DNA of 64,000 nt from a virus (IMGVR_UViG_3300011448_000001:1-64000), one strand, 5' to 3'. Positions 35,722-56,515 are shown, counted from the first letter of the stretch. Numbers and translations: made by a program. The notes: a model not told the origin generated them from the sequence alone.

Positions 35722-35767
35722 GTAGACTTTCTGGAATCGAACCAGATAAACCACCGCTGGAAGTCTT
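35722..35767 (-). ncRNA. Minimal tRNA-like element A (acceptor + T arm only)
   Basis: Minus strand AAGACTT-CCAGCGGTGGTTTA-TCTGG-TTCGATT-CCAGA-AAGTCTA-C. Confidence 0.55.
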
Positions 35768-35861
35768 ACCTGTGTTATGTACAATTAATTTAATAAGAGT
35801 TTTTGATAAACAAAATCAAGTTATAATTTTTATGAGAAAAAAATAAATTTTTTAAAGGTCG

Positions 35862-35933
35862 TACCCCCAGTACGATTCGAACGCACACTAAAGGGGTTAG
35901 AGCCCTCTGTGCTAACCATTACACCATGGGGGA
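35862..35933 (-). tRNA. Amber suppressor tRNA (anticodon CUA), tRNA-Gln-like
   Basis: Cloverleaf TCCCCCA TG GTGT AATGGTTA GCAC A GAGGG CT-CTA-AC CCCTT TAGT GTGCG TTCGAAT CGTAC TGGGGGT A. 1:72 mismatch; CCA not encoded. Confidence 0.92.
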
Positions 35934-35934
35934 G

Positions 35935-35987
35935 TATGTTGTGGAGGAGTCGAACCTCCTGTTTGATCAAAGACCGTCATACAACAT
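35935..35987 (-). ncRNA. Minimal tRNA-like element B abutting the suppressor tRNA
   Basis: Minus strand ATGTTGT-21 nt-GGAGG-TTCGACT-CCTCC-ACAACAT-A; one further nt precedes the suppressor 5' end. Confidence 0.6.
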
Positions 35988-36000
35988 TGAACTGTATTAA

Positions 36001-36348
36001 TTACTTCTTACGAGTAATCCAATTCCAAAATCTCTTATACCAAGGAAGCTTGATTTCTTTTTTCTCTGTCACACTATTGATCAGATCCTTAGCAGAGTTA
36101 CTTAATTTATCAACAATTTCACAAAAATCATCAATTAACGTACTACATTCCTCAATTGCATATCCTGCAATCTCTGCACACATTGCTTCAAATTCATCCT
36201 GTGTCATAATACCAGGATCAATAAGATGTTTCTTAATCTTAGAAAATGCAAGAATTGTATATACGTCCTGAGGATTAGAAACCATACTTAAATCAATAGT
36301 ATATGTTGACTTCTTATTTATTTTCTTTGTTGTATTTTTCTTATTCAT
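36001..36348 (-). CDS. Hypothetical protein (115 aa)
   Basis: Complete ORF; C-terminal LPWYKRFWNWITRKK. Confidence 0.6.
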   Translation of the reverse strand: MNKKNTTKKINKKSTYTIDLSMVSNPQDVYTILAFSKIKKHLIDPGIMTQDEFEAMCAEIAGYAIEECSTLIDDFCEIVDKLSNSAKDLINSVTEKKEIKLPWYKRFWNWITRKK

Positions 36349-36372
36349 TTTTATATATTTTAAAAGATTATA

Positions 36373-36792
36373 TTAATTATCATAAGAAGGAGTTGCTATT
36401 GAGGATTCGCAAGAATCCATACCAATACTGTTAGAAAATCCATCAAGAACAGCATCTTTTTGTTCATTACCACTATTAATATTAGCTTTTTTTGCTGCCT
36501 CAAGAGCACGTTTCTGTACTTCTTCATTATATGCTTCAAGATTCTCTTTCCATTCTGGACATGTTACAACAACGACATCGTGTGAAAATGCTTTTTCATA
36601 GAATGTAATAACAAGATCTCCAGCTTTACATATATATTCGTGTTGATCATCACCCATTCCAGTAATTATTTTAGTGTCTGTATCAAGTAACAATATTGAT
36701 CTAATGGCTTCTCTCTGAGAAATCGTTGGAACCACTTTTCCGTTCTCATCAATATTTACACATCCACAATTATTAATGTATAATGTATTCAT
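36373..36792 (-). CDS. Hypothetical protein (139 aa)
   Basis: Complete ORF in the late-strand operon. Confidence 0.6.
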   Translation of the reverse strand: MNTLYINNCGCVNIDENGKVVPTISQREAIRSILLLDTDTKIITGMGDDQHEYICKAGDLVITFYEKAFSHDVVVVTCPEWKENLEAYNEEVQKRALEAAKKANINSGNEQKDAVLDGFSNSIGMDSCESSIATPSYDN

Positions 36793-37001
36793 ACTTTATA
36801 TTTTAATCGTTTGTTTTCTTTATATCTTTTCTTTAATTTAAACTTAAATAATTTATTAATTAGTATATCATGAGTATCTGTTTCATCCTTCATTATGTCT
36901 TTTATGAATTTAAACTAATACTAACATATCTATTTTACTAATTCTCTATCTTCGTTTAAATCTTTACTTGTTTGTTTTACTAATTGTTCAAAATCTGTCA
37001 T
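36789..37001 (-). CDS. Small HU/IHF-like basic protein, 70 aa, 3 TAGs (absent from ORF track)
   Basis: MTDFEQLVKQTSKDLNEDRELVK(Q)IC(Q)Y(Q)FKFIKDIM...; ATGA overlaps with both neighbours. Confidence 0.65.
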
Positions 37002-37396
37002 TTAATTACAGCTACAATATCGTAAGGTACTACTAATTGAGAATCTTTCACAAGATCAAAATACTTACCTGCTCCGTTACGATAAACAATAGTATCACCA
37101 ATGTTTATTTCAAACGGTTTATAATCACCAACAACTGTTCTATATTCATATGGAACTTTAATAACAATACCTTTTCTAAAATCAGAATCTACTTCTTTAG
37201 TTTCTGTAACAACGTCTTTATAATCTTTGATTTCCATACCGTCCTCAACAGTATCGTTTGTATCTATAGGACGGGAAATTTCTTTATTTACTTTATCTAG
37301 CTCCAGCGGTTTTACCAGAAAAGCACGTATAAAATTATACTTAATATTCTCTGATACGCTTTCCGCGAGCTTAGTCTGATCTACTGTATTTTCCAT
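36998..37396 (-). CDS. GroES-like co-chaperonin
   Basis: FLVKPL...KGIVIKVP...IGDTIVY...LVVPYDIVAVI matches the Cpn10 pattern. Confidence 0.65.
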   Translation of the reverse strand: MENTVDQTKLAESVSENIKYNFIRAFLVKPLELDKVNKEISRPIDTNDTVEDGMEIKDYKDVVTETKEVDSDFRKGIVIKVPYEYRTVVGDYKPFEINIGDTIVYRNGAGKYFDLVKDSQLVVPYDIVAVIK

Positions 37397-37803
37397 TATT
37401 TCTTTAATGCTTTAAGATGATTTAATACTTTAATAAGATTTGAAAGAACTGTTTCTTTCTCTACTTTCATACAAGCTGGCTGATTCTTCATTGTATTAGG
37501 AAGCTCTGCAAGTTCTGTATTGTATATTGAAAGAAGAGCATCGATCTCATCAAATACGTTTACAAAAGCTGTTGATTCTTTTTCATCAATCGGCTTAACA
37601 AATCCATCTTTAATAAGATTATTTACAGCATCTACTGAAATCTTATATTCAGCACTATAAGCAGACCAAGAATCTATTTTGTTATCAGCATGTTTCTCAG
37701 ATGCGTACTTAATTTCATATGCTGTATTATCTTCATTGAGTGTCATAATATCACCCTTTTCCATTACGAAAAATGGAACAATAACTTCTATTTTCTTTGC
37801 CAT
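37396..37803 (-). CDS. Hypothetical protein (135 aa), first gene of the minus-strand late unit
   Basis: Complete ORF next to the strand switch. Confidence 0.65.
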   Translation of the reverse strand: MAKKIEVIVPFFVMEKGDIMTLNEDNTAYEIKYASEKHADNKIDSWSAYSAEYKISVDAVNNLIKDGFVKPIDEKESTAFVNVFDEIDALLSIYNTELAELPNTMKNQPACMKVEKETVLSNLIKVLNHLKALKK

Positions 37804-37835
37804 TTTTATAAAAAGTTTAAATGTTTCTGTAGACG

Positions 37836-37913
37836 TAACGTAAATTTTTATTTTTTGGTTGCAATTATAAAAAATTTTTTATTTTATGCAACTTTTTTGA
37901 TTTTCTTACGTTA
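37836..37913. promoter_or_regulatory. Divergent pair of ECF-type promoters TGCAAC-N16/17-CGTTA
   Basis: Plus: TGCAAC 37887-92, 16 nt, CGTTA 37909-13. Minus: TGCAAC 37863-58, 17 nt, CGTTA 37840-36. Located exactly at the strand switch. Confidence 0.6.
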
Positions 37914-37982
37914 CGCCATAAAGAGGAGGGGGATTATAGGGGGAGGAAATATGACAATCATTAATATTAATAATAACTAGTT

Positions 37983-38387
37983 ATGAATAATAAAGTAATA
38001 GATATATATACTTAGCCTATATTTAAACCTACTAATTTAGTAGTGTGTAAGAATATAAGTATAGAAGAACTAAGAAAGAAGTATGTATATATGTCAGAAG
38101 ACAGAGAATTAGAAGATAATTCTGAGTATCCTGCTATGGTATATAGAGTATATGATAAAAAGACAGAATTAGCTACTAATTTAGTAGTACTAAACACTAA
38201 ACTAATAAAATCTGAGCAAACAGTAGATAAATTAGCAAATATAGAAATAGTTAGTCATGAAGCATATCATGTAGCATATAATATTTTAGAATATTGTAAT
38301 ATACCATTAAATGAATATACAGATGAAGTAGTTGCATATTTAGTAGGATGGATTAGTAAATGTATATATAAAACCTGGAAGAAATGA
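37983..38387 (+). CDS. HExxH-motif protein, 134 aa (one TAG near N-terminus)
   Basis: ATG 37983 is in frame with ORF 38043..38387 via TAG; VSHEAYH...EVVAYL. Confidence 0.6.
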
Positions 38388-38992
38388 TATTAGGAACACA
38401 TAATAGTTTAAGTTACGCTAAACCCACTAAATGGTGGATGAAATTTATTAATTTTACATCTAAATGTCAAGAATTAACAATAGAAGAACAATGGGAATGT
38501 GGAGTAAAATACTTTGATTTTAGATTATCTCCAAATAATTTAAATAAAGCTAGACACGGTCTTGTAGAATATGATGTAAACATAGATAAAGAACTTACTT
38601 TTCTAAACAATATGGCTAAAGAATATGATGAAAAAATATATGTAGCTATAAATTTAGAAGGAAGTGAAGATACTGCGATAGCTAAATACTTGTTTGAAGA
38701 TATAATCGCCGATTATACTAAAAAATATAAGTATTTGACTATATGTGGAGGATTTTGTAAGAATCCTTGGCATCAAATAGTAAAGATAGATAACCCACAA
38801 AAAGTAGAATTATATTGGGAATTTCTTAATTGGACAAGTGATGCGTGTTCGTTTAAAGAAAAAGTTAAAATGCTGATTACTAACATATTACATTTTTCTC
38901 CTAAGTATTGGGCAAAGAAAAACAATAATAAATGGAAGTCTACAGAATTAGCAGATAACACAATATTAGTATTAGATTTTGTAAATTTATGA
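38384..38992 (+). CDS. PI-PLC X-domain-like phosphodiesterase
   Basis: ILGTHNS...CQELTIEEQWECGVKYFDFR...HG is the PI-PLC catalytic signature. Confidence 0.75.
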   Translation: MILGTHNSLSYAKPTKWWMKFINFTSKCQELTIEEQWECGVKYFDFRLSPNNLNKARHGLVEYDVNIDKELTFLNNMAKEYDEKIYVAINLEGSEDTAIAKYLFEDIIADYTKKYKYLTICGGFCKNPWHQIVKIDNPQKVELYWEFLNWTSDACSFKEKVKMLITNILHFSPKYWAKKNNNKWKSTELADNTILVLDFVNL

Positions 38993-39459
38993 TAAACATT
39001 AATGATGGAGAGAAAAATCTAATTCTATATTATGCAGATTATATATCATTATAGCATGAAAATATACCTGTTACAGATTCTTGTAAGTACTTTTTTATAA
39101 AAGGATCACCATATAATATAGAATATATAGTAACACACGACATAGAAGTAGATTTTGATAATAAATATGTGAGAGAAGCATATAATAATTTACGAATGTT
39201 AAGTAACTGTTTTACTAAAAATGCTGCTGCTAAATTCTTATCAGATTTATGTGAAATACAAGCATGTGGAGTAGTTGATGCGGAACGTATGATATAGTAT
39301 ATATATCAATATGACAGAGATTTAAAGCATAAAGCATTTAAAAAATATAATAAATATATAAAATCTAAAAAATATACACATATAGTATCAGACGAAGATG
39401 GAAATAAAATAGAAAAAGAATGTACAAAATATATAGCACACGCTGAAAAATTGCGTTAA
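38989..39459 (+). CDS. Hypothetical protein, 156 aa, 2 TAGs (absent from ORF track)
   Basis: ATG overlaps the PLC stop (ATGA); open to TAA 39459 under code 15. Confidence 0.6.
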
Positions 39460-39543
39460 AGATGAACGTTTCTTAAACTGCTTAAATAAATTAAAGAAAG
39501 CTTAGAAATTCATACTAAAAAATATTAAAGATTATACATTATT

Positions 39544-39774
39544 ATGACAGGTAAAGAAATATAGAACTTAGTTATACTTGAAATAGTATCTACTAATCCA
39601 GACTACCCACATGATCCTATAGTATCTGATGAATCTGCAAGAAATGAGATATTTAAACGATATAAAGAAGGATTGTCTTGGGAAGAAGTATTTGAACCAA
39701 TACAAAACATAGAGCATAGAAACAGATATATAGATTTATTTAATAAAATAGATGAAGAAGGATTAACGTTATGA
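39544..39774 (+). CDS. Hypothetical protein, 76 aa, one TAG
   Basis: MTGKEI(Q)NLVILEIV...; stop overlaps the next ATG. Confidence 0.5.
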
Positions 39775-40430
39775 AAATAATAGAGAACAATATCATTCCT
39801 TTTAAAGGATTTGCAGCAATTAATTTATTTGGAGTACTATTTACTAGAAAAGGAGTAAAAATAAACGATACATTATTAAATCATGAGTCTATTCATACAG
39901 CACAAATGAAAGAATTATTATATGTACCGTTCTACTTATTGTACGGTTTAGAATATGTTTATAAACTATTTAAGCATAAATTTAATACGAACAAAGCATA
40001 TCGCAATATATCGTTTGAGAAAGAAGCATACGATAATCAATATAATCCTATATACTTAAAGATACGTAAACATTATGCTCAATGGTGTAAAAACGATATA
40101 AATATAAAGAAATAGGATTGGAATAATTATATAAAATATATTATTACTAGTAAACACGCAACATTAACTTTAGTAATAGATAAAGAAGATGAAAAATTTA
40201 AGTGTCCTTCTTATTTTTATAGTTTGTATGTTGACGATAATGAACGAAACAAAGGATATGCTGATGAAATATTAAACGTTGGAGAATTATTAGCACAACA
40301 ATATTCTAGTAAAGTATTTGTACAGATTGATGATAATATAAAATCATGGGCAATTGATTGGTATAAACGTAGAGGATATGTTGAAACAACAGTAGAAGAT
40401 AATAAAAACTGGTTAGTAAAAAAATTTTAA
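39771..40430 (+). CDS. HExxH domain + GNAT acetyltransferase-like read-through fusion (219 aa)
   Basis: ORF 39771..40115 (LLNHESIH) ends at TAG, in frame with ORF 40224..40430 (LYVDDNERNKGYA...WYKRRGY), with no intervening TAA, TGA or ATG. Confidence 0.55.
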
Positions 40431-41012
40431 TTTTTTTTTATTTTTTTTGTTATGTATACAGAAACACGAAATAGTATTAGTGAACCCCCGGGGTATACTA
40501 GGCGAGGGAAGGTACCCCCGGCAAAGTTCCTGAGTAAATATAAAAGTGAAAAATCAAACAGTGTGGCGTGACAATTAAAATCACACACTGCGTGTGTTAT
40601 GTTGGGGCAAGCATTTGCTTGCCTCTCTTTATGTTTGTACTTCTTCGTCAGTCCTCTAACACACGTAACTGTTATAATTGCTCGCAATAGTGCACAAATC
40701 CTTAAATTTAAAAGTATGCTTACACAATTCCAAGTAATTAGTTTAGCTGCGCAGTATATCTGCGAATAAGTTTATTGACGCTTTTGAAGAATGGCTTTCC
40801 TTACCTGCTATAAGTAGCGGTGACATAGATTTTCCAGATGACGAAAGTGGTTGTTCTGATGATGTCAATATTCCTTGGTAAACAGAACGACAGACTTTGC
40901 CTGCCTTCTGATAATCAAGTCATGTAAGATTGTTCTTTTTAGGAAGTCCTCTAACATACATTACTATTCTGATAATTCGCAATATTGCAATAACCCTTTA
41001 ATATTTACTAAA

Positions 41013-41204
41013 ATGACACAACCGTATTATTTCCTTAGCATGCGCACAAGTGGCGCGTTTGAAGTTAAATTAATTAGCTGTAAAACAATTACTGCTGAAC
41101 AAGCAAAACAGTGGTATGAGTATTACAGTAAAAGTGTAGCTGGTGATGTACGCATCGTAGTAGCTACTGAAATCGGAATGTCTCTTGGTTTATACAAATT
41201 CTAA
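41013..41204 (+). CDS. Small early hypothetical protein (63 aa)
   Basis: ATG after an A-rich leader; C-terminal part of track ORF 40875..41204. Confidence 0.5.
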   Translation: MTQPYYFLSMRTSGAFEVKLISCKTITAEQAKQWYEYYSKSVAGDVRIVVATEIGMSLGLYKF

Positions 41205-41264
41205 ATTTAGTACAGCCTTAATGGCTGTACTTTTAAATGTTTATTCACTTTAAAACATAAATAT

Positions 41265-41453
41265 ATGAAAAAATTACAATTTGCTTCATTCGCTGTATTA
41301 TTTATAGCACTTGCGTGTTTTGTTACAGCATCGTTATTCACAGGTATTATATTTGATGTTCTCATGTGGGCATGGAATATTCTCGGAATGTTAGGCATGA
41401 TTGGCATCCTTATCACTGCGCATCAAGAATATCGTGATATGCTTAAGCATTAA
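41265..41453 (+). CDS. Small two-TM membrane protein
   Basis: 62 aa with two hydrophobic stretches, followed by a hairpin. Confidence 0.55.
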   Translation: MKKLQFASFAVLFIALACFVTASLFTGIIFDVLMWAWNILGMLGMIGILITAHQEYRDMLKH

Positions 41454-41648
41454 GTGGAGAGGGCTTTTGCCCTTTCCTTTCTAACACACATTTTAAGCGT
41501 TCTAAACGCATAGAATAACAAGATCTTATAAGATATATACAATCTAGGATTGACTACAACAGAAGGCCTTAAAACAGCATTTACGCTGGTCCTCTAACAC
41601 ACTCTAACTCCTCGTACATAGCGCAATAGTGCAAAAATAACATAAATT

Positions 41649-41873
41649 ATGCTAAAAATGAAAGAAACAGTAGACAAAATTATTAATCTCATAAAAGATA
41701 ATAATTATGGGACTTGTGGCATCTTTGATACCGTTGTACCAAACGGAGATATAAAAGAAAGAGTCTTCAACGAAAACGGTGTTATGGTATATGTTTGTAA
41801 AGACTGGAAGTATATTGAAATCAAAGGATTGTCTGGTATAGATTTTAATAGAGTAAAAGACGAGACATTCTAA
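41649..41873 (+). CDS. Small early hypothetical protein (74 aa)
   Basis: Follows a promoter-motif copy; followed by a terminator-like hairpin at 41922-41954. Confidence 0.55.
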   Translation: MLKMKETVDKIINLIKDNNYGTCGIFDTVVPNGDIKERVFNENGVMVYVCKDWKYIEIKGLSGIDFNRVKDETF

Positions 41874-42236
41874 CACCAGAGTAAACTTTAATTATTCTAA
41901 GGGTTTTTATATTGCACTAGAAGGGCTACGCAGAAATGCGTATGCTCTTTTTTAGTAATACTCAAAAGTCACAAAAGAATAATAGGGTCTAGACTTTTAT
42001 AGTCTATTTAGGCAAGTCCTCTAACACACGTTAACGACCTTTTAGGAAGTCCTCTAACATACCATAACTTCTCTTAACAATCGCAGACATAGCGAAGAGA
42101 CTATGGTTGTGATTATAGTTGAGGAAGATAATTTCACATTATCATTTTTCCACAACTATTTTCGTTTTCTCTTCACGGCTACATATTAATATATAGCCAA
42201 ACAAACAAAAATTATAAACCCCCAAAACAAAACAAC

Positions 42237-42968
42237 ATGGAACAGATTATCAATGCTGCAGCCCTTGGTACATACATCACCACAGGAGCCGCATTAGGCA
42301 AAGGCACTTACAAAGATGCCAACAATCAAGATGTAAATTATAAGTTTGTAAAACTAGACGTACGTGACCAACGAGCGCCAAACGCACAACACCGTGCAAT
42401 GATGCTCTTCTGCTCGTCTTCCGATGAGATTGAAACTCTCTATGAAATGCTCAAAGAGCATATCAAACACGACGAAACAGGAAACGTACTCAAGGACCGC
42501 AGCGGATGCGCACTGGTTGATTGGCGTGACATACGGCTAAATCACAAAGAGCTATACCAAGAGCTCGTAGATGAAGGCTGGACACGCTGGGAAGGTATGC
42601 GCGTAGAAAATGTGCCTCTGCAGAAAGGAAACTGTTATCGCAACGACCGTCAAGGAAACATTATGAAGGACAAATACGGCAACCAAATTACCGCAAGCTC
42701 CATCAATATCCTAACTATGGTCAACTACATAGCCATGACAGAGAACGGACCAAAGACCTACTACATGGCTGGTTGGGACCCTGACTCTCAGCGCAATCAG
42801 ATGGAGCAGAGATTCTACCGCAACCCCTGCGTACAGGAAACTGCAATTCACGACGAACTGCCACCTGCACAACCAGCAACATCAGCACAGATTCCACCAA
42901 CCGCAGGAACCACAACACCGCCAATTCCAGCATCAGCGAACAAAGAAAACATTGACGATGAGTACTAA
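42237..42968 (+). CDS. Early hypothetical protein with Pro/Thr-rich acidic tail (243 aa)
   Basis: Long ORF with higher GC, downstream of tandem promoter motifs, followed by an 11-bp hairpin. Confidence 0.75.
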   Translation: MEQIINAAALGTYITTGAALGKGTYKDANNQDVNYKFVKLDVRDQRAPNAQHRAMMLFCSSSDEIETLYEMLKEHIKHDETGNVLKDRSGCALVDWRDIRLNHKELYQELVDEGWTRWEGMRVENVPLQKGNCYRNDRQGNIMKDKYGNQITASSINILTMVNYIAMTENGPKTYYMAGWDPDSQRNQMEQRFYRNPCVQETAIHDELPPAQPATSAQIPPTAGTTTPPIPASANKENIDDEY

Positions 42969-43092
42969 AAGACAGGGCTTGTACGCAAAAATGTACAAGC
43001 CCTTACCGAAACGAAACGTCATTTAGGATAATTACCATCTAGACATCTATCCTAAACAAAACAATAGTTATCAAAACAAAAACATTATCAAA

Positions 43093-43620
43093 ATGCAGAA
43101 AAAATGGATTGAAGAGCAAATAACGTTCATGAAACCTAATGCTCAAGACATCGTCAAATTTGCTCCATTAATTGATGAACTTATCGACAAAGTTAATATT
43201 AATAACACATATCGAAAAGCAGAAAAAAACGGAATAAATAAAGACGACGTAGAAATTGTGCGTACAAAAGAAGCAATATCACTACTTCAAGGTGAAAATC
43301 ATCATATAGATGAAAAATATATACTTGATACACTTATTGAACTCGGCTTCGTTGGTACTGGAATTATTGATTTACTTCCAGAAGGTTATCCTTATAAAAA
43401 TGGCAAAATTGTCACAATAGAGATAACAGATGCAGGACAAATACAACTAAAGATACAAGTCATAAAAGTAATAAAATCGTTTATTAAAGATTCGTCTTTA
43501 AAAGAAATAAACGATTTGTTACAAAACATGCCTGCAAAAATAACAAACGTTAAAAAAGACGAAGCAGAAGATTTCATACGACATTTAAAAGACGCAGGAG
43601 CAGAAGCACATATCTGTTAA
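43093..43620 (+). CDS. Protein with C-terminal ribosomal bL12 (L7/L12) CTD-like domain
   Basis: KIQVIKVIKSFIKDSSLKEINDLLQNMPAKITNVKKDEAEDFIRHLKDAGAEAHI parallels the L12 CTD pattern KIxVIKxVRExTGLGLKEAKDLVExAPxxxKEGVSKxEAExxKxxLEEAGAxVEV. Confidence 0.7.
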   Translation: MQKKWIEEQITFMKPNAQDIVKFAPLIDELIDKVNINNTYRKAEKNGINKDDVEIVRTKEAISLLQGENHHIDEKYILDTLIELGFVGTGIIDLLPEGYPYKNGKIVTIEITDAGQIQLKIQVIKVIKSFIKDSSLKEINDLLQNMPAKITNVKKDEAEDFIRHLKDAGAEAHIC

Positions 43621-43639
43621 CGATTAAAAAATTAAACAA

Positions 43640-44071
43640 ATGGAAAATAGAGATTTCATAGTTGTAATAGACGAAACAGAAGAATTACAACACAGATACG
43701 CAAGAAAAAGTCTAATGATTGTGTTAGACGAATATCTTCCACGCACAATAAAAGAAGAACAAAAAGAGATAATAAACAATCTTCCAATAAGAATACAAGG
43801 ATTATCAAAAAACGAAACAAGAACCCTAATAAAAGGTTTACGTAAAATAAAAGTTTCAACATCAATATATAATCCGGAAACAAAAAGTTGGGAAACCGAA
43901 AACAATAATAATTTGTTTAACTATAACGAAAACGACAAACAACAAATATTAATAGACACGGTAAAAACACTTATTAAAATAATAAATCATATGCCAACAA
44001 ATATTGCAGACTATTCATCTAAAGAACAAGATGTACTTGATACTTTTTTAGAATGTACAAAACAAAATTAA
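43640..44071 (+). CDS. Divergent bL12-CTD-like paralog at the N-terminus (143 aa)
   Basis: A 52-aa segment aligns without gaps to the CTD of 43093..43620. Confidence 0.5.
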   Translation: MENRDFIVVIDETEELQHRYARKSLMIVLDEYLPRTIKEEQKEIINNLPIRIQGLSKNETRTLIKGLRKIKVSTSIYNPETKSWETENNNNLFNYNENDKQQILIDTVKTLIKIINHMPTNIADYSSKEQDVLDTFLECTKQN

Positions 44072-44112
44072 ATTATAAGGGGGAGCTTGGACTCTCCCCC
44101 TTAAAAACTCAG

Positions 44113-44171
44113 CCAAGAAGAGTATAAAATAGTCACTGATGAGACTTGGACGAAACACAAATGTGTCTGAC
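44113..44171 (+). ncRNA. Type I hammerhead ribozyme
   Basis: Stem I GTCA/TGAC, core CTGATGA, minimal stem II G-C with loop ACTTGGA, GAAA, stem III CAC(A)/(T)GTG, cleavage triplet GTC (after 44167). Upstream CCAAG can pair with loop CTTGG. Confidence 0.8.
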
Positions 44172-44324
44172 GTGAATAGCCATATTTTTTATGATTATTT
44201 GTTTTTATTCATTCAAGGTTAGATTGTAGCATTGAATTGTAGTAAAATTCGTGAGAACTGTAGCTACATTATTTGGATTCGAAGACTCAAATGTAACCGT
44301 TCGTGAGAATAGTTACATTTATTT

Positions 44325-44408
44325 GCCTTTATGGCGGAATTGGTAGACGCGAGGGACTTAAAATCCCTTGTCCAGTTGGACGTGCAGGTTCGACTCCTGT
44401 TAGAGGCA
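44325..44408 (+). tRNA. tRNA-Leu (UAA)
   Basis: GCCTTTA...AGGGA CT-TAA-AA TCCCT, long variable arm, GCAGG TTCGACT CCTGT TAGAGGC A. Confidence 0.92.
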
Positions 44409-45150: not shown

Positions 45151-45152
45151 CT

Positions 45153-47156: not shown

Positions 47157-47233
47157 AACATACAAAGAAGTAAAACCTTACGCTAAATCTCACAGAAGAA
47201 GCGTAACTCCTTATAAACGAACAAAATATCAAT

Positions 47234-47506: not shown

Positions 47507-47534
47507 CATTTTTAACCAATTAAATCAATTAATT

Positions 47535-48035: not shown

Positions 48036-48079
48036 GATTTTCGTCAGTACATCATGTACAAAATCAGAAGGGAGAATCC

Positions 48080-48480
48080 TAGATAAGAACCTTTGAGTCA
48101 ATGTCTAAAATGTACGAGGGAAGGGAATATGTGCATACATAGCTGATGCATAGTTGAGAAATTGAACTACATTTTCTATGAATTAACATAGAGTTATACG
48201 AGCCACCGAGCCATTATAACGGACACCTCCATACCGAAAACACGGTATAGAAAAATATGTATTCGGGTCAACCTATGGTAAATCGAGTCATTGAACCTTA
48301 TTATATCTCTAAAAGAGCTCTATAATTATTTACTAATATCAAGAATACTAATAATGCCGACAAGAGCCTTTGAGTCACGTCACTAGCATTTGTACAAATT
48401 TACGTTCTAAGCACTTTTTATTATGCAGCAGTATAAACTGTAAACATGTATAGTAAAAGTGTCTTAGAACGCTTATAAAG
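48080..48480 (+). ncRNA. Structured RNA with four GARYCW-NN-GARYCW loop hairpins
   Basis: Motifs at 48087, 48200, 48285 and 48364, each in a 16-17 nt loop closed by a different stem; further hairpins lie between and after them. Confidence 0.6.
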
Positions 48481-48499
48481 TACTTTATATCGAATGTTT

Positions 48500-48830
48500 A
48501 CATTTGACCCTGTAAGCATTCACAAAAAAAGGATCGCTTGAGTGTGATGTAAATATGCAAGACGAGGGTTCGACTCCCTCTAGCTCCACAAAACCAATCA
48601 AAAAGGCAAGAATCAAAACTCTAAAAATAGGCACCTACTAGGAGACAGCCCACTTGGTGTAGAGAAGCACATTTTGATTGGTTCTATATAAGGGGCTATA
48701 TGGCATTTGATTGCATAGGAGATAAACACGAGATCAACATAAAAACAAACGACAATAGTAATATTGTTGACTATACTTGCGTAGCGTAAGTAAATGTCTG
48801 AGGTAGCTGTACCAATAACCGAAAACAGCA
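48500..48830 (+). ncRNA. ssrA: Circularly permuted (two-piece) tmRNA
   Basis: 3' piece TATGCAA GAC GAGGG TTCGACT CCCTC TAGCTCC A (48554-88) precedes 5' piece GGGGCTA TATGGCATTTGA TTGCATA (48692-717). G3:U70 pair present. Tag frame 48745-89 reads TNDNSNIVDYTCVA*. Outer boundaries approximate. Confidence 0.85.
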
Positions 48831-48831
48831 A

Positions 48832-48882
48832 GGAGAGATTGGATAAGGTAACACTTAAAGAGTTCGAATCTCTTTCTCTCCT
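48832..48882 (+). ncRNA. Minimal tRNA-like element C directly after the tmRNA coding piece
   Basis: GGAGAGA-19 nt-AAGAG-TTCGAAT-CTCTT-TCTCTCC-T. Confidence 0.6.
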
Positions 48883-48919
48883 CCGTTAACTTAATACAAA
48901 TTATCAAAATTTAAACAAC

Positions 48920-50064
48920 ATGAAAAGATTAGAACAAAAAGATCTGATGCACATAAAAGGTGGATACAGAGAACAGATACGAATAATTGTATCTGAGTGT
49001 GAGCCACTTAACCGTGCTTTACTGTTGACAAGAATGAAAAACAACTTCATCAGTATGCTTTATGACGTATCAATAAAACCATACGTCATGCAAAAAGACA
49101 AATTAAACACAATTTGCTGCTTTATAAACCAGTTTAATTGTGATTGTGTCGAAAATGAAGATGCATATTCTTTCTATCGCTATTTGATAGCACCTGTATA
49201 TGACACTATGTCTACTATGAATAAAGAAATCTTAAACGAAATTGGTAATATTATACTAAAAAATGGATAAGATTTCAGAGTTTCCAATCGAAACAGGAAC
49301 ATATGTTGCTGTTAGTAAAGGCATAATTGCATTATGCAAGATTATCGGATTATATCCGATGTTAGAGATAAAAGAGGTATTAAATATAACAAAATTCTTT
49401 GACTTGTTAGAACCAAAAACTAACATTTCAGACAAAGAATTAAAAAATTCATTATCTTTAGACAGAGAAAATTGGATGTTCTTTAACCTCAAGTGTTTAA
49501 CAAGTACAGACGGATTGAAAGCAAGTGCCTTCTATCGTGAATGTGAAATAAACTATGACGAAAGTCTAGATTTGTTTAAAATGTACTGTCGTCTTATAAG
49601 AGATGGTATAAGTGGACTCAAAATGATAGATATTATTAGAGTACGAACAAACTGCACACGAGACGAAGCATTAAAACTAGTAAATCACTTTGACGAAAAA
49701 GTATATGCATACAGAAGAAGTGGGCCGGTGTTGTAACCAAACACTTACACCAATATGTATTATATTTGGAGTAAAGATTTATAAATGTAGTAATCCAGAA
49801 AAACTTTATGAATGGTTAAATTGGACCAATAGTAAAATATTTTGGAGATTACAAGAATTTATCGATGCTCCAGATGTAACTCGTATACAAACAATATACA
49901 CGATGACTACAGATGTTTTAATAAGAATATCTTGTAGTATGTTAACAACAAAAGTTAATCTAACAAGAGAAACTATGGCAGAATTATTAAATGCGGTATC
50001 GTGGACATATTATCACCGTGTAAGAGAAATATACGAAAAAACACAAGCAGAATTACCGTTTTAA
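48920..50064 (+). CDS. Three overlapping hypothetical ORFs (48920..49270, 49263..49736, 49690..50064)
   Basis: Overlapping ORFs of 116, 157 and 124 aa upstream of the sigma factor. Confidence 0.6.
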
Positions 50065-50115
50065 GAGCTAGCATCTCATACGTCAGTGACAGACTAATAA
50101 CTGCTATAAAATGAT

Positions 50116-50673
50116 ATGGAAAATCGAAAAAATATAACGCAAGAAGAGATTGACCTTATCAAAAGAGCACAAAGCGGAAGCATTTCTGCATTTAACCAGA
50201 TATTTTATAAATACAAATATTTTGTAGAATCTATTCTCTTATCATATATAAAAGATAAAGATGAAGCGCGAGATATCACAAATATTGTATTTTGTAAAAT
50301 ATACGATAAACTACCAAAATTCAAAGAATACAACTCGTTTGGTGGTTGGTTAAGAATCTTAACAAAAAATACTGCTATAGATTATCTACGTACAGTAAAA
50401 GTAAATTTCACAAGTATAGATGACGAAGAGTCTGATATTCAATTAGAAACAGGTGAATCTGAAGAAGATTTGGCCAATCTTCTAACGTTTGATTACGTAA
50501 GAGACATTATATCTAAAATGGATTCAACAAAACGTCAAATCTTTACAATGTATTATGTAGATCATCACACAATTAGTAGTATATCTAAGCGTTTATTGGT
50601 ACCTGAAGGAACTATTAAGTCTCTTCTATATAGGTTCCGTAAACAAGTTTTTAAACATTTAAAGTTAAACTGA
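50116..50673 (+). CDS. ECF-type RNA polymerase sigma factor
   Basis: LIKRAQSG..SAFNQIF, EARDITNIVFCKIY, SFGGWLRILTKNTAIDYLR (region 2); ISKRLLVPEGTIKSLLYRFR (region 4). Confidence 0.9.
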   Translation: MENRKNITQEEIDLIKRAQSGSISAFNQIFYKYKYFVESILLSYIKDKDEARDITNIVFCKIYDKLPKFKEYNSFGGWLRILTKNTAIDYLRTVKVNFTSIDDEESDIQLETGESEEDLANLLTFDYVRDIISKMDSTKRQIFTMYYVDHHTISSISKRLLVPEGTIKSLLYRFRKQVFKHLKLN

Positions 50674-50674
50674 T

Positions 50675-51040
50675 ATGCAAACATTCTCATTACTGTGTCT
50701 AGGAATCGTGACAATAGTTTTGATTGCTCGCATGAGTAAATCTAATAAACTATTCTGGACACTCGTATTAAGTATGTTAGCAGGTTTTATGGGAGGTACA
50801 ATTGCATCTAATGCAAAAGTACAAAACAAAAAGGTTGTGAAAGTGATACAATCACCACAAATGACTACTACACAAACAACACTTTTTACCATTACTGAAA
50901 ACGAACCAACAACCGTAAAAAGTAATGATAAAAAAGTAACCGTTACGTGTGAAAAAAAAGTATCATTAGTAACAACCGATTCTCATAAAATAGAAGCTAA
51001 CAAGTTTAGAGATCAAGTAATACCGTTTGACACATCATGA
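50675..51040 (+). CDS. Two-TM membrane protein (121 aa)
   Basis: Two N-terminal hydrophobic helices and a Thr-rich tail. Confidence 0.6.
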   Translation: MQTFSLLCLGIVTIVLIARMSKSNKLFWTLVLSMLAGFMGGTIASNAKVQNKKVVKVIQSPQMTTTQTTLFTITENEPTTVKSNDKKVTVTCEKKVSLVTTDSHKIEANKFRDQVIPFDTS

Positions 51041-51133
51041 ACAAACAATACATCTATTGTTCAACGATATCAAATCGCAAATCTTGAGAAAAATTATCAA
51101 AATTTAATTTAACCATTTAAAATCAATTTAATT

Positions 51134-52606
51134 ATGGGAAAGAATAAGAAGACAACAACTGCAAAGAATAATGCAACACAAACTCAGCAGAAACCTGTTG
51201 AGAATAAAGTAGATAACAAGCAGGAGACACCAGAGGTACCTATAGCAGAAGCTCAGGTGATTGATCACAACCCAATGGTATCTGGTATGATTAACGAAGC
51301 AATGGTAGCTCCTCCATCTGGAAAGTCGTTGTCACCAGATGCAGCAGCAATGCTTGCGTATACTATGCAACGCAAATTCTTTGACGATCCTAAGTCAAGA
51401 GACCGTTATCCGCAAACGTTCTTGGACAACATGTCAGCGGTACAAGACGGTCTGATAGTAGGAACTATTATTCAGGAGGTTGTAACAACAAACAGCCCAC
51501 TGTCTCTAATCATTCGTAAGGGATCTTACAACCAGCTTCGTGCAATTGCATCAGATTATGGTGTGAAACTGCCAGAAGTTAACAAGCTTGCACTTCCTAC
51601 TAAGGAAGAGCTTAAGGCTATGGAAGCTTTTGGTATTACACAGACAGATGACGGTCAACTTAAAATTCCATTTACACCAGAAGATGTAGATGATAACACA
51701 AAGAAGCAGATCGCTCACGAAGAGAAAATCCGCAAAACAGAGGTTGAAATGGATCCTAAGAAGATCACAACCGACGAACAAGCAGCAGCAGCTCTTGAGA
51801 AGATTTATGCAAATCGAAACATCAAAGGCGGTATTCATGTAGTATTACTTAATGCAATTCATTTCGTAAAAGAATATCGTTTTGCTGAGGCTGAACGTAA
51901 GAACGATCAGAACATGTGTTGCGCTCTTGAGTCACGCACAATCAACGATTGGCTTGTAGATACTATTAGTATCAAAGAACCACTGTTGATCCTTAAGAAC
52001 GTAACTGCAGCTATGTGTAGAGCCGTTGAAAAGACAGAAGCACCTATAAGTGCATTCTTGTCATTCCGTAGTGCTATCACAAAGGATGGCGTATGCCCAT
52101 TGTCTGATACAGAAATTGCAGCAATGGTTAAGGCACTTATCTCTTGGTATGTTGAGTTTATGTGTGCAGAGTACAATTCTCAGCTTACTTCTTCTAAGAA
52201 GATGACTCAGAAGACAAAAGAGACCGTTCAGGAAGCTCTTGAGACTCTTAAGGAGGTTAAGAAGAACCTGACAGAATTCGATACAGAAACTATCGAAAAG
52301 ATGCCAGATCCAACCACAGCAGAATCTGATGCAAACACAAAGATGTTGTATTACTTCACAAGATCTCAGTATTTTGCAAAGGATTGCTCCGGCAAGAAGA
52401 GTCCTGAGACATACTTCACAAACCTTAAGTACAATGTGTGGAATAAGATTGCAGAAATTGCGAACATGTTCCTTACAGAATCCAACCAGATTGAGGATAT
52501 GGGAGATCAGAATATCCTTGACCTGGAAATAGCCAATCAGGAAAATAACGACGAACCTGGTAACGAAGGTACGAAAGAAGATACAGGAGAGACAAAAAAA
52601 AACTAA
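51134..52606 (+). CDS. Large early hypothetical protein (490 aa)
   Basis: Long ORF without TAG; ends in an A9 run (A AAA AAC TAA). Confidence 0.8.
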   Translation: MGKNKKTTTAKNNATQTQQKPVENKVDNKQETPEVPIAEAQVIDHNPMVSGMINEAMVAPPSGKSLSPDAAAMLAYTMQRKFFDDPKSRDRYPQTFLDNMSAVQDGLIVGTIIQEVVTTNSPLSLIIRKGSYNQLRAIASDYGVKLPEVNKLALPTKEELKAMEAFGITQTDDGQLKIPFTPEDVDDNTKKQIAHEEKIRKTEVEMDPKKITTDEQAAAALEKIYANRNIKGGIHVVLLNAIHFVKEYRFAEAERKNDQNMCCALESRTINDWLVDTISIKEPLLILKNVTAAMCRAVEKTEAPISAFLSFRSAITKDGVCPLSDTEIAAMVKALISWYVEFMCAEYNSQLTSSKKMTQKTKETVQEALETLKEVKKNLTEFDTETIEKMPDPTTAESDANTKMLYYFTRSQYFAKDCSGKKSPETYFTNLKYNVWNKIAEIANMFLTESNQIEDMGDQNILDLEIANQENNDEPGNEGTKEDTGETKKN

Positions 52607-52773
52607 TGACGGGTACTTCTCGTGCCTTAGAGAAGATAACTGCCCATTTAAAGGCAACCCACACGTCTTTTACGAAACCAAAATCTGTAATAGTACAATT
52701 CGTCAGAAATGTATCTTCTATGACCCAAAAAGTCCTAGGAGTACAGAAAATAGAGTACGTAGGAGATAATTAA
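52606..52773 (+). CDS. 55-aa ORF in the -1 frame (coupled gene or frameshift extension)
   Basis: TAATG overlap; MTGTSRALEKITAHLK...YVGDN*. Confidence 0.4.
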   Translation: MTGTSRALEKITAHLKATHTSFTKPKSVIVQFVRNVSSMTQKVLGVQKIEYVGDN

Positions 52774-52786
52774 AATCATTATCAAA

Positions 52787-53176
52787 ATGAAAACACTAAA
52801 AACAATAATGTGTGCTGCGTTATTAACATTCGGATGGATTGTTGGTACACATGACGACACATCATTAAAAGCAGAAGATCCACCAGACTTTAATTTTACG
52901 ATACCTGTAGATTTTCAGGCATCGTTTCTGAAAAAGACTGTGGAAAGTCTTACTAAAGAACTTGAAAGTAATGCACGGGTCGATACCGTGATAGTAAACA
53001 AAACAAAACACGTGAAGGTTAAGGTACCTTATCGTGTAGTAGAACGTGACACTTCGTATGTGCCCGTTGTACTCATTATAACACCTGGGAATCGTAAAGA
53101 GCATATCCCTGATAGCATACCAACGCTACCAAAACACGATAGTTGCTCTCATGACAGTATAGATACGTCTATATGA
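52787..53176 (+). CDS. Exported/membrane-anchored hypothetical protein (129 aa)
   Basis: Signal-like N-terminus; preceded by CATTATCAAA. Confidence 0.65.
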   Translation: MKTLKTIMCAALLTFGWIVGTHDDTSLKAEDPPDFNFTIPVDFQASFLKKTVESLTKELESNARVDTVIVNKTKHVKVKVPYRVVERDTSYVPVVLIITPGNRKEHIPDSIPTLPKHDSCSHDSIDTSI

Positions 53177-55203
53177 GGCTAAGGAGGTTAGGATGGAGAT
53201 GTATTTAAAAGCTTTGCGCTTTATACATTCTCCTGCCTAGCTGCCATGTCATTTGAGTGCGTTAAGAGAGTCTCATTAGCTCAGGCACGAAAAAATATCA
53301 AAACTTGATCCAAGAATATGTTAGCTTACCATGTAAGTGAGATACACAAAAGGTAGGATGGAAGACATTGAAATGTGAAAAATTTTAATGTATTAGGGAT
53401 AGCGTTTGTATTTCAACCCTAACATTTAGTATATGAGAACCGTCTGGCGATATACTATCTAAGAAAAACGCGTAAGTCTTCAGAAGAAGCAAAATGAAAC
53501 CGTATCGGAAATCTATATAATGAGGTATAAGTATAGAAGAACGAAACACGAGTTGCAAATCATCATATTCCATACATGATGATATACCTTAAATCGCTTA
53601 TGTAGTGTTCCACAGCTCCAAACTGTGTAAGAAGGCAGAAAATACCTAAAAGTAATAGATAAAGAACAGAGACTGTAAGAATCTACTTACAGCTATATCG
53701 TAAATATAGTACTTAAACTTAATCCTTGCCGTTAGATTCGGCACAACTCAGTTGAATGGGTGGCAGTGATCAGGTATAGTGTATGTTGAAAATGTTGCTC
53801 ACTATTATGAAATAAGTGACCGCCAGCCCTTGGTCGTTCATGCGGGATATAAAAGTAGAATGACAAGATCGAGAAGGTACTCGATGTAGGACGAACCCTA
53901 CAGTTTCAAAGAGTGTACTAAAACACTGATTGGAAGATAAGTAAGAGAAGATTAGCGAATCTCAAACTTTGAATTAAGAAATGGTGACTCCATGACAGTC
54001 AAAAATAAAAATATAACTAATGCATTCGAGGTATATCATTCCAGATATTACGGACCTGCTTAGTTCTCTATTATGTTGCAACTTATATGAAATACGCCTC
54101 CGAATTAGAAAGGTTGTAGTGAAATACACGATTCGTGAACTATTCGATGCCACGATGGTCGTCCTGCTATTAGAGATATAAGTATGAATATAATGACATC
54201 ATAGGAGATGGTTTTAGTAATTTTCCATTCAAAAAAATCTTAGGAGTAGTAAGCCTAAAAACCAAGTTATTAACAAAATTATATATTCGGTTCGATTTCT
54301 GTATATTCTAACGCATATTGTAGATGTGAAATATATGGTAAACCAAAAGGATATATGAGTGCCAACCGTTATGAGCAAAAGGTTGTATCAAGTAAACTAA
54401 ATGACAGCAAATCTTTAGGTAAATTGAACAATGCAGCTATACTATTACACATACTCGTCCATACTGTCTCTATGGAGGAGGGTGCGGAATCTCAGTGTAA
54501 AAGCGTATGAGTAAAGCTATGTGATGTACTCGGTTAGAATCCGACTTATTCGTGCACTATAAACAAAAAAAGACCTCGAAAAGGCTACAATGGGTGTCTT
54601 GAAAAATTAGACAATTGTAAAAACTCAGTAAAGAGTAAATCCGACAAATCAATGAAACCTCTGAAGTGGAGATATTGTCGTTAATTAACGTACTCCTCAC
54701 GTTTGTACAAAAAGTAGGAAAAGTAGTTTTGATTGATTGTTCTTTTACTACAAAAATACCTTACGTCGAAATAATAAGAACAGGGGTAGCTTTGCCTAAT
54801 TCGGTATCGCAAGACCGGATAACAAAAGCAACATACTATAATCTACTCAGCACTGGAACTCTCCGCGATGCTTGGACACATCAGAGCCTTTGACGGTAGA
54901 TTAGGTATACAAAATTTACACAAAAATTTATAGTAAGCTAAAGTAGTTGGTCACTTGAATGTGAAATACACAGAAACACGTTTGTAATTTTTATACTCTG
55001 ACGCGCAGCCATAAGTCGTGGACGACGAGTACAAAAAACGAGCTCTCATAAGCACGCTTGAACGTAATTGTATTAGATAACAACGAAAGAATAGCAACGA
55101 CAACAAACAAACCCAATATGGCGTCGGGGAACGGCCTTACTGTTCCCCGCATTTTAATAACTTTCGTGGTGAATCAATCGCGAAATCAAAAAGGAAAATT
55201 ATT
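53177..55203 (+). ncRNA. 2-kb hairpin-dense non-coding tract (candidate large ncRNA)
   Basis: No credible ORF; more than 20 short inverted repeats seen by eye. Strand is inferred from the flanking genes. Confidence 0.5.
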
Positions 55204-55815
55204 ATGACAGAAGTAAATGTAAAAATCCAGGAAAAGAGCCGCAAAGTAATTGCAGCATACGGTCAGGTATTCGGCCATCAGTTATTCACTGTACGTCAGT
55301 GTAATGTAGATAACAAGTATTATGACAAGAAGAACAATGCTGCAGATACAGGTATGCTCGTTCCACATCGCCCGATTCGTCGATACAAAACTCAGCGAAT
55401 CGATGTAACATCTTTACGGCTTCGTAAGGATATTGATGGTACTCTTACCATTGTAATTAACGAGTCACTTAAAGACGATAATGGCAACAGCCTTGAGATT
55501 ATCCGTCCTATCGAGATGCCTAAGTTCAACGTAGAACCTACTACAGAGAACATTCAGAAGGCTATTGAGGCTAATACAAGCGGTTCTGGTGAGCCATTGT
55601 ATTTCAGTGACATTAACAAGCTTACTGAAGCTGTTAACCGCGCAAACACAAACGAGATGTTACGGGCTAAGAATCTCCTGGAGGACATCGAAGGACAGAT
55701 TCGCTGCATAGAACAGACAATTGAGAAGGATACTCGATATGCTATTGAGTATCGTAAGGCTCTCGGCGAGACTGACGATGTTACAATTAACACAACCGTT
55801 AAAGTTGAGGTATAA
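55204..55815 (+). CDS. Hypothetical protein (203 aa)
   Basis: Long ORF with high-expression codon usage. Confidence 0.75.
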   Translation: MTEVNVKIQEKSRKVIAAYGQVFGHQLFTVRQCNVDNKYYDKKNNAADTGMLVPHRPIRRYKTQRIDVTSLRLRKDIDGTLTIVINESLKDDNGNSLEIIRPIEMPKFNVEPTTENIQKAIEANTSGSGEPLYFSDINKLTEAVNRANTNEMLRAKNLLEDIEGQIRCIEQTIEKDTRYAIEYRKALGETDDVTINTTVKVEV

Positions 55816-55817
55816 TT

Positions 55818-56393
55818 ATGGCAAATCGTCTGACACAAGCAGACGCATTGATTGTAAGATATTTGCTTGAAGACCCACTAATAAGGAGTGTTCTTGTAGA
55901 TAACTCTAAAAAAGAAGTATTCAAACGCATCGATATAAATACAGACGGTTCAATCACGCTAGGGAAGACCTCCATTAAGTGGTGGAATCGACTGCTTAAC
56001 GATGAAAAGAATATTTCTTTCAATGAGTTTGCTTTAAAAGTCACCGATAAAATATCGGGACAGAAAAACAACACAAATGAGAAATTACTTAATGGGTTAC
56101 TTGAGGTTATTGCCAAAAAAGGTATAAAAAATCAGGATTATTCATATGTAATCGATCAGTTGTTAATAGCAGCAAAGTTCGGAATGGACGGTCCGCTTAA
56201 ATGTAAATGTATGGATCTTAATAATAATGACAGAGACCCTGTAGAAAATAATAAAGGTCCACGCATTCGCAAAGCAAACTTACAAGGTCGTTCTGAACGA
56301 ATTCCCTTGAAATTTAGTCTCAATCCTTTTGGTGAGACAATAGATATAAATGCTCGATTAGTTATTGATGAAGATGGCTATGTAGAGCAATAG
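55818..56393 (+). CDS. Hypothetical protein (191 aa; TAG stop, read-through adds QYAA to TAA 56405)
   Basis: Complete ORF. Confidence 0.7.
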   Translation: MANRLTQADALIVRYLLEDPLIRSVLVDNSKKEVFKRIDINTDGSITLGKTSIKWWNRLLNDEKNISFNEFALKVTDKISGQKNNTNEKLLNGLLEVIAKKGIKNQDYSYVIDQLLIAAKFGMDGPLKCKCMDLNNNDRDPVENNKGPRIRKANLQGRSERIPLKFSLNPFGETIDINARLVIDEDGYVEQ

Positions 56394-56459
56394 TACGCAG
56401 CATAAGAAGATGTATAATAATGAGAAACCCTCATAACAAAAATACATCTTCTTATACAC

Positions 56460-56515
56460 ACCTCCTAATGGCAAACAATGACCTTGTTTGGTAGGTTCGA
56501 TTCCTACAGGAGGAA
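56460..56515 (+). ncRNA. Minimal D-armless tRNA-like element D
   Basis: ACCTCCT-AATGG-CAAACAA TGACC TTGTTTG-GTAGG-TTCGATT-CCTAC-AGGAGGA-A; preceded by a 14-bp hairpin (56402-56454). Confidence 0.6.

Follow-up and report, generated by a model that had tools for sequence, protein, structure and literature searches.

Minimal tRNA-like elements of a crAss-like phage as candidate transcript punctuation marks

In mitochondria, transfer RNAs (tRNAs) punctuate the transcripts that contain them, and mascRNA does so at the 3' end of MALAT1: in both cases an embedded tRNA-like fold recruits ribonuclease (RNase) P, which forms the 3' end of the upstream RNA, together with RNase Z. The acceptor/T-arm half is the part of a tRNA that RNase P, RNase Z and the CCA-adding enzyme recognise, and minihelices suffice as their substrates. 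In plant mitochondria, t-elements bearing the motif GGTTCRANYCC direct RNase P and RNase Z cleavages that create messenger RNA (mRNA) ends, a task that real tRNAs and simple acceptor-like stem-loops can perform in their place (PMC1920247). The permuted form of the transfer-messenger RNA (tmRNA) gene is also cleaved by tRNA-processing enzymes (PMC11915505). Here we describe four short tRNA-like elements, E1 to E4, in a 64,000-nucleotide stretch of viral DNA (IMGVR_UViG_3300011448_000001:1-64000, hereafter the window), which forms the first 64 kb of the 87,098-base record of a crAss-like phage. Our analysis shows that these elements are real and not chance occurrences, that compensatory changes accompany their conservation, and that tRNAs can take their positions in relatives. 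Since they match the description of t-elements in every respect that could be tested, we propose that they act as cis-acting punctuation marks.

Structure and covariation of the elements

The positions given for the four elements in an initial annotation of the window were recovered both by reading the sequence and by an explicit descriptor scan, in which a 5-base-pair (bp) stem had to close a TTCRANN loop and stack directly on an acceptor of >=6 bp. As that annotation had described, six or seven acceptor pairs stack directly on a perfect 5-bp T stem in all four, with the loop TTCGA(T/C/A)T. E1, of 46 nucleotides (nt) (35722-35767, minus strand), consists of AAGACTT / TCTGG-TTCGATT-CCAGA / AAGTCTA, with six pairs (AGACTT/AAGTCT) and an A1.A72 mismatch; its neighbours are the suppressor tRNA on one side and the dUTPase gene on the other, and its minimum free energy fold and covariance model R2 (below) agree with the assignment. 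E2 (53 nt, 35935-35987, minus strand), recognised also by its fold, by model R1 and by homologs, reads ATGTTGT / GGAGG-TTCGACT-CCTCC / ACAACAT with the linker ATGAC, and on its 3' side the dinucleotide AC leads to position 1 of the CTA suppressor tRNA at 35933. E3 (51 nt, 48832-48882, plus strand), for which fold and slot comparison agree, reads GGAGAGA / AAGAG-TTCGAAT-CTCTT / TCTCTCC and stands directly after the tmRNA coding piece, 38 nt ahead of open reading frame (ORF) 48920. E4 (56 nt, 56460-56515, plus strand), with further evidence from fold, model R2 and synteny, reads ACCTCCT / GTAGG-TTCGATT-CCTAC / AGGAGGA with the linker AATGG; it has six pairs (CCTCCT/AGGAGG) and an A.A mismatch, and lies between ORF 55818-56393 and ORF 56570-57121. 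Thus the two 1:72 mismatches that had been noted are those of E1 and E4, both A.A, and the suppressor tRNA has U1.U72. No stem sequence is common to the four, and every element is co-oriented with its flanking genes in a short gap.

The elements had been characterised as consisting of an acceptor stem and a T arm only, which slightly overstates the case, since the linkers of 14-24 nt hold a GG motif and a short hairpin. When each element was folded alone, central hairpins of 3-7 bp appeared (CCA-GCGG-TGG in E1, GGTC-TTT-GATC in E2, TAAG/CTTA in E3 and CAAACAA/TTGTTTG in E4), and most linkers contain a D-loop-like GG. The linker, as modelled, appears to be the collapsed remnant of a D loop and anticodon arm, often with GG, rather than a spacer. 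The scan of the whole genome (87,098 bases) returned only E1-E4 and three true tRNAs, and against the four short-linker elements observed, 200 dinucleotide shuffles averaged 0.33 and never exceeded 2.

ARAGORN made no call for E1-E4, and Rfam RF00005 had no match to them or to the fifth element described below (58149-58213), even at E<=10 on stretches of <=1.9 kb, which bears out the expectation that tRNA finders would miss such elements; phage annotations therefore lack them. A D arm and an anticodon arm with a 7-nt loop, scoring above the gathering threshold as in a canonical tRNA, were absent from E1-E4, which do show a TTCRANY loop closed by a 5-bp T stem and, stacked on this stem, a 7-bp acceptor. 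The T-arm motif GGTTCRANYCC was found in E1 (TGGTTCGATTCCA), E2 (AGGTTCGACTCCT), E3 (GAGTTCGAATCTC, which deviates at the flanking G/C positions) and E4 (AGGTTCGATTCCT). The 3:70 pairs are G:C in E1 and E2, A:U in E3 and C:G in E4, so that the alanine identity combination of G3:U70 with A73 does not occur. The start of the E4 linker, AATGGCA, followed by its 7-bp hairpin, approaches the TATGGCA of the tmRNA, which the other elements match poorly, and neither RF04321 nor RF00023 matched the minimal tRNA-like elements (minis) of the window.

Three routes, namely tRNA patterns, the tmRNA model and the dUTPase protein, led to relatives of the phage, which are cited below by G and L labels; the closest, found via the dUTPase encoded beside E1, are IMG/VR contigs of ~100 kb with 50-67% protein identity. 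Because MAFFT placed the 5' acceptor strands of the four elements wrongly, we instead seeded a covariance model (R1) with three members of equal length, namely E3 and two minis of other phages. In the window, R1 recovered E2 at 28.2 bits (E=4e-5) and E1 at 21 bits, neither of which belonged to the training set, and in ~0.5 Mb of related DNA it gave 18 matches. In the resulting 18-row alignment, 97.7% of the cells form standard pairs, compared with 57.6% in shuffles, and pairing drops to ~50% when the partner columns are slid. Double changes occur in 11 of the 12 pairs, only the G53:C61-equivalent pair being invariant, and the relatives also contain G.U pairs, which fits an RNA on the gene-sense strand. 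The 18 rows, which include E2 and E3 and exclude E1 and E4, served to build a second model (R2), which scored 27.3 bits for E1 (E=1.4e-5) and 27.0 bits for E4 (E=1.9e-5); the next matches were parts of tRNA-Glu and of the tmRNA acceptor piece at 20-22 bits, and everything else reached <=12.9 bits. R2 also gave three or four matches in each of five complete relatives. Covarying homologs, whose absence would have pointed to decayed tRNA pseudogenes according to the initial annotation, are therefore abundant, and the substitution pattern indicates that the elements are conserved and under structural selection.

Genomic slots of the elements

E3 occupies a position that could be followed through many relatives. 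The tmRNA of the window is encoded by a circularly permuted two-piece gene (48532-48789, plus strand; ARAGORN tmRNA*; RF04321 at 37.9 bits, E=3.5e-6, below the gathering score of 47, with relatives reaching 72 bits), arranged as acceptor piece, intervening segment and coding piece ending at the tag stop, with G3:U70 and the tag (A)DNSNIVDYTCVA. It is followed by a post-tag hairpin, GCTGT...ACAGC (48806-48829, plus strand), seen in the sequence and in downstream regions aligned by eye, whose loop contains TACCAA, or CTACCAAAGTG, CTACGAAAGTG or CTACCTAAGTG in relatives, and which ends 2 nt ahead of E3. A permuted-tmRNA match was obtained in 20 of the 25 relatives searched (E<=1, 0.01 or 0.001, depending on the search), giving 21 genomes with the window. 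In at least 19 of these, the place after the tag stop and the conserved-loop hairpin, which we call the tmRNA slot and which E3 fills here, holds a tRNA-shaped element. About a dozen genomes have a mini of 45-60 nt there, its stem sequence differing by lineage (GGAGAGA, GAGTGAGT, AGAGAAG, ATGGGCG, CTATCTAG, CGGAGAT, GAGTGAGG and TTGGAAGT). Seven genomes have a tRNA-like of 68-75 nt, with a D arm in 5/7 and an 'anticodon' loop that is 4, 6 or 9 nt long or not recognisable; ARAGORN labels two of the tRNA-likes at this slot 'tRNA-??? (tt)'. In G011 the slot is occupied by a true tRNA-Met(CAT). At this slot, the comparison indicates, tRNA shape is conserved and decoding is not.

We also considered E3 as a remnant of the 3' half of a one-piece tmRNA. 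This was rejected, as the E3 acceptor strands pair together and not with GGGGCTA, and as the slot in relatives contains tRNA-derived elements with a D arm or a true tRNA-Met. Two-piece tmRNAs of the crAss-like clade seem to be undescribed in the tmRNA literature that we found. Two further structures were noted among the relatives. A tRNA-Gln-like element at G004:3089-3156 (minus strand), near a true tRNA-Gln at 3788-3860, has intact acceptor, D and T arms and the tetraloop CTTA in place of the anticodon loop (CAGA-CTTA-TCTG), and the post-tmRNA element of G009 has a CTTG tetraloop at the anticodon-loop position; judged by sequence, the two look like deliberately 'disarmed' tRNAs.

The E4 slot was defined by homologs of both flanking proteins together with the conserved trailer ACTAGGTAA...TC(A/G)AATTC, which in the window (ACTAGGTAA...TCAAATTCG, 56515-56539, plus strand) lies directly 3' of E4 and upstream of the p56570 gene. 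The trailer motif also follows a true tRNA-Gln(TTG) that fills the slot in G001 and a T-loop hairpin that fills it in G003, each ending 1-2 nt ahead of the conserved ACTAG motif. The G003 hairpin is uninterrupted, with 12 layers and the T-loop-like TGTGATT, and amounts to a natural 'minihelix'. Apart from these slot occupants, minis with G3:U70 and a linker beginning (T)ATGGTA were seen on the minus strand at G001:54565-54626, with an A73-C74 trailer and a T arm identical to that of E4, and at G003:54824-54866; both resemble the tRNA-like domain of tmRNA standing alone.

The initial annotation had counted a family of four and had missed a fifth tRNA-like element of 65 nt (58149-58213, plus strand), recognised from its fold and from tRNA-like minis upstream of the orthologous gene in relatives. 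A D arm is present, the anticodon arm is replaced by a 4-bp stem closed by a 5-nt loop, and the T loop, TTTAAAT, is A/T-rich. Between ORF 57264-58139 and ORF 58217-60118, the gap of 77 nt is taken up almost entirely by this element, which begins 9 nt past the stop of the former and ends 3 nt ahead of the ATG of the latter, and the slot upstream of the p58217 gene contains tRNA-like minis in G000, G001 and G003. Similar elements were seen at L001:3202-3266 (Rfam tRNA, 46.5 bits) and L117:9158-9221.

The downstream neighbour of E2, two nt apart, is the amber (CTA) suppressor tRNA (35861-35933, minus strand; ARAGORN; RF00005 at 56.8 bits). The proposed placements, E2 abutting the suppressor and E3 following the tmRNA coding piece, both stand. 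E2-type minis lie directly 5' of amber suppressor tRNAs, with AC between, in L083, L156, L173, L187, L197 and the window, and share a layout of ATGG-like linker, 4-bp covarying hairpin and T arm. Taken together, the slots contain true tRNAs, anticodon-defective tRNA-likes or bare T-loop hairpins in relatives, from which it follows that the tRNA shape is what is kept, not decoding.

Searches for other signals were uninformative. Scans for sigma-70 promoters and intrinsic terminators near the elements yielded as a lone 'terminator' the reverse strand of the E2 T arm, and a search with AATTGTACAT gave nothing informative. The motif AATACAG, which stands 5' of E2 and 3' of tRNA-likes in distant relatives, was not clearly enriched in the window (22 occurrences, 14.8 expected), and no Rfam ribozyme was found at AATACAG loci.

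The suppressor loci of relatives showed several features of their own. Many gut-phage amber suppressor tRNAs are preceded, 4-5 nt upstream, by a conserved hairpin with the stem ACGTRGN...NCYACGT and no Rfam match (L097, L101, L104, L107, L113, L120, L121, L130, L140 and others), whose loop can pair with 3-5 nt further upstream to give an H-type pseudoknot. In L001, L004, L006, L007 and L010, ~330 nt upstream of the dUTPase gene, a group-I-intron-like insert of ~200 nt or more splits the suppressor tRNA after GGCTCT; this insert starts with TTGGTGGAGCT and has an apparent ORF in L006, L007 and L010; the suppressor tRNA of L083 is likewise interrupted. Downstream of the same ORF as E2 lies a tRNA-like of 93 nt whose variable arm is long and whose anticodon loop has 8 nt (L002:2749-2841, L005:3302-3394, L007:2578-2670 and L003:3559-3650), called 'tRNA-??? 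(ggaa)' by ARAGORN and scoring 29.4 bits against the Rfam tRNA model in L003, possibly a frameshift-type or non-decoding tRNA. Downstream of an ORF ending in FWNW, in L081, L082, L083, L084 and at 68.4-68.7 kb of G003, we found tRNA-likes and odd suppressor tRNAs with the T loop AGATGAA that ARAGORN does not call. On their 3' side are CA(C/A)AATACAG and hairpin-pseudoknot modules, for example CAGCC..ACAGGGG..GGCTG...CCCCTGT, which are candidates for HDV (hepatitis delta virus)-like or theta-type ribozymes, none belonging to an Rfam family at threshold; the theta-ribozyme paper does not mention upstream or tRNA-like elements.

Besides the suppressor tRNA and the tmRNA gene, the RNA genes of the window comprise tRNA-Leu(TAA), tRNA-Glu(TTC) and a RAGATH-1 hammerhead ribozyme (44106-44172). 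Between the hammerhead and tRNA-Leu(TAA) are two hairpins (44226-44268 and 44291-44318, plus strand) with the loop motif (C)GTTCGTGAGAA, and the motif recurs at ~89000 of G004 (minus strand) in a hairpin loop (CCTCAC GGTTCGTGAGAATA GTGAGG) adjoining tRNA-Leu. A 24-kb query drew no megablast match among GenBank phages. The phage is a divergent member of the crAss-like group.

Proposed processing signals and alternative explanations

We consider it on balance probable, from the sequence comparisons, that the elements are cis-acting RNase P/RNase Z processing signals, that is, tRNA punctuation of phage transcripts. This had been among the original suggestions, and the comparative slot evidence favours it, true tRNAs taking the elements' place at RNA boundaries at both the tmRNA slot and the E4 slot; the mechanism, including transcription, the enzymes involved and the cleavage sites, we infer. 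The elements would be transcribed as parts of polycistronic phage RNAs. Each would adopt the shape of a tRNA 'top half', in which the acceptor and T stems form a 12-layer stack closed by a canonical T loop, with the GG linker and short hairpin as a prop. Host RNase P would then cut at the 5' side of an element, and RNase Z, or another activity that trims tRNA 3' ends, after the discriminator. At E3, the RNase P cut would give the coding piece of the two-piece tmRNA its 3' end, and 3' trimming would free the next mRNA, while E4 and the fifth element would part neighbouring mRNAs. E2 may be released in tandem with the suppressor tRNA or may cap the new 3' end of the upstream mRNA, the AC spacer after it becoming its A73-C74.

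Several observations weigh against this interpretation. The E4 slot of G004 contains an ambiguously folding hairpin, with a tRNA-Leu upstream, and no clear positional ortholog of E1 was found among the relatives compared. Other suppressor-tRNA loci have plain hairpins or pseudoknots and no tRNA mimic at the E2 position, which suggests a generic 'stable structure' role there and not the recruitment of an enzyme. The conservation of slots could in part reflect hot spots of tRNA gene gain followed by decay. With regard to covariation, the 18-row alignment was fitted to the covariance model and hence leans towards the model's structure, and one of its rows (L285:1272-1315) sits within a true tRNA-Arg.

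If the elements were structural caps and not cleavage signals, stable 5'-terminal or 3'-terminal structures would shield the upstream mRNA or the tmRNA coding piece from exonucleases, for instance once RNase P has cut the adjacent tRNA, or would insulate the folding of neighbouring RNAs. The hairpin or H-type pseudoknot that replaces the mimic 2-5 nt upstream of the tRNA at many amber-suppressor loci, the bare 12-layer hairpin in the E4 slot of G003 and the end of E2 2 nt ahead of the RNase P site of the suppressor all agree with such a function, and a generic cap role at the E2 position is plausible. For the elements as a whole we regard it as rather unlikely: a cap has no need for the invariant GGTTCGAnTCC motif, the 7+5 stacked geometry and the N73-C74 trailer, which are kept across very divergent genomes; even the bare G003 hairpin retains a 12-layer stem and a T-loop-like 7-nt loop; and the tmRNA slot of G011 holds a true tRNA-Met, which RNase P must cut out. 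A conserved T loop and elbow-forming GG would also be expected of trans-acting small RNAs, released and CCA-added decoys that titrate a tRNA-binding host factor, SmpB for example, or a tRNA-targeting defence nuclease, modifying or sensing enzyme. Some linkers begin with (T/A)ATGG(C/T)A, as does the D-loop analogue of the phage's own tmRNA, two minis of relatives carry G3:U70 (G001 54626-54565 and G003 54866-54824), and an RNA consisting only of the tRNA-like domain (TLD) is known in mycobacteriophage DS6A, a similar molecule inhibiting tmRNA whether chargeable or not, and SmpB titration has been proposed for TLD-only RNAs (PMC4131195; PMC11915505). G3:U70 occurs, however, in 0/4 elements of the window, which also lack an anticodon loop, the usual target of anticodon nucleases, and their acceptor sequences all differ, so no single synthetase or sequence-specific binder would fit. 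Titrating SmpB would be counterproductive for a phage whose own tmRNA needs host SmpB, and decoys leave unexplained why fixed slots can instead hold true tRNAs as unrelated as tRNA-Met and tRNA-Gln. We therefore consider a purely trans-acting role unlikely. Slightly less credence goes to a combination of punctuation and decoy pool, in which excised minis would be CCA-completed into stable 'anticodon-less tRNAs' of 45-56 nt acting in trans; their targets could be tRNA-targeting defence nucleases, SmpB/EF-Tu or uncharged-tRNA sensors, that is, recognisers of the elbow or acceptor end.

The size series found in relatives, from true tRNAs through tRNA-likes with anticodon loops of 4, 6 or 9 nt to minis, and the true tRNAs in the same slots of some genomes are what one would expect if the elements were decaying tRNA pseudogenes, deletion remnants at phage tRNA hot spots that are now functionless. 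Neutral decay, however, would have broken the stems, whereas pairing is intact in all four elements with an invariant T loop, and orthologs at ~50-67% dUTPase identity keep perfect or near-perfect pairing despite many double substitutions; the size series fits a loss of decoding with the shape retained. Covariation thus appears to exclude pure decay largely, and we give it very little weight. Most improbable of all, in our view, are mobile tRNA-shaped insertions spreading among intergenic sites. E1 and its 9-nt leader could form a TACAT-flanked indel relative to G003, but this candidate was not upheld, as the pairwise alignment around E1 is ambiguous. Without a stem sequence in common, the four elements are not recent copies, and E3-type and E2-type elements are stably syntenic in many genomes, with none interrupting a tRNA.

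Comparison with known systems

The principle of punctuation is known from organelles and mascRNA, and no description of it in phages or in the formation of tmRNA 3' ends came up in our literature search. If our interpretation as processing signals is true, tRNA punctuation, so far known from organelles and a small number of eukaryotic long non-coding RNAs, would also be the way in which crAss-like phages process their transcripts, and these phages rank among the most abundant viruses in the guts of humans and animals. The interpretation would further show how the two-piece tmRNA of a phage acquires its 3' end, account for the persistence of tRNA-like 'junk' in these genomes and reveal the minimal tRNA unit that is under selection once decoding is dispensable. 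A covariance model such as R2 could be used to annotate minis and to predict transcript boundaries.

With canonical tRNAs and the D-armless tRNAs of mitochondria, the phage minis have in common the acceptor stem, the T arm and the T-loop sequence, and they carry an N73-C74 trailer like the real tRNAs of the phage; they differ from a tRNA in having neither a D stem nor a 7-nt anticodon loop, which makes decoding impossible. Minihelix substrates share the geometry of the minis, a T loop on 5 bp of T stem and 7 bp of acceptor, which G003 has in uninterrupted form. Minihelices, however, are laboratory constructs, whereas the phage minis are natural and conserved, their 5' strand containing an additional linker and hairpin. 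The TLD-only tmRNA of DS6A (PMC4131195; PMC11915505) is a phage RNA of similar size with little beyond an acceptor stem, a T arm and a D-loop analogue. It is derived from tmRNA and has alanine identity, whereas the minis of the window are without G3:U70, have unrelated acceptors and coexist with a complete two-piece tmRNA in the same phage.

mascRNA has a full if imperfect cloverleaf and belongs to the eukaryotic nucleus, in contrast to the phage minis, which are without D and anticodon arms and whose upstream RNA is a tmRNA piece or an mRNA. The t-elements of plant mitochondria (Forner et al. 2007, PMC1920247) are, like the phage minis, non-decoding tRNA-like folds with GGTTCRANYCC that lie beside mRNA ends, and 'acceptor-stem-like stem-loops' act as minimal versions of them (PMC1920247). 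The t-elements are organellar, whereas the phage minis belong to a bacteriophage of the crAss group; the minis are also smaller (46-56 nt), with a GG linker and a mini hairpin standing in for the collapsed D and anticodon arms, and one of them marks the end of a two-piece tmRNA.

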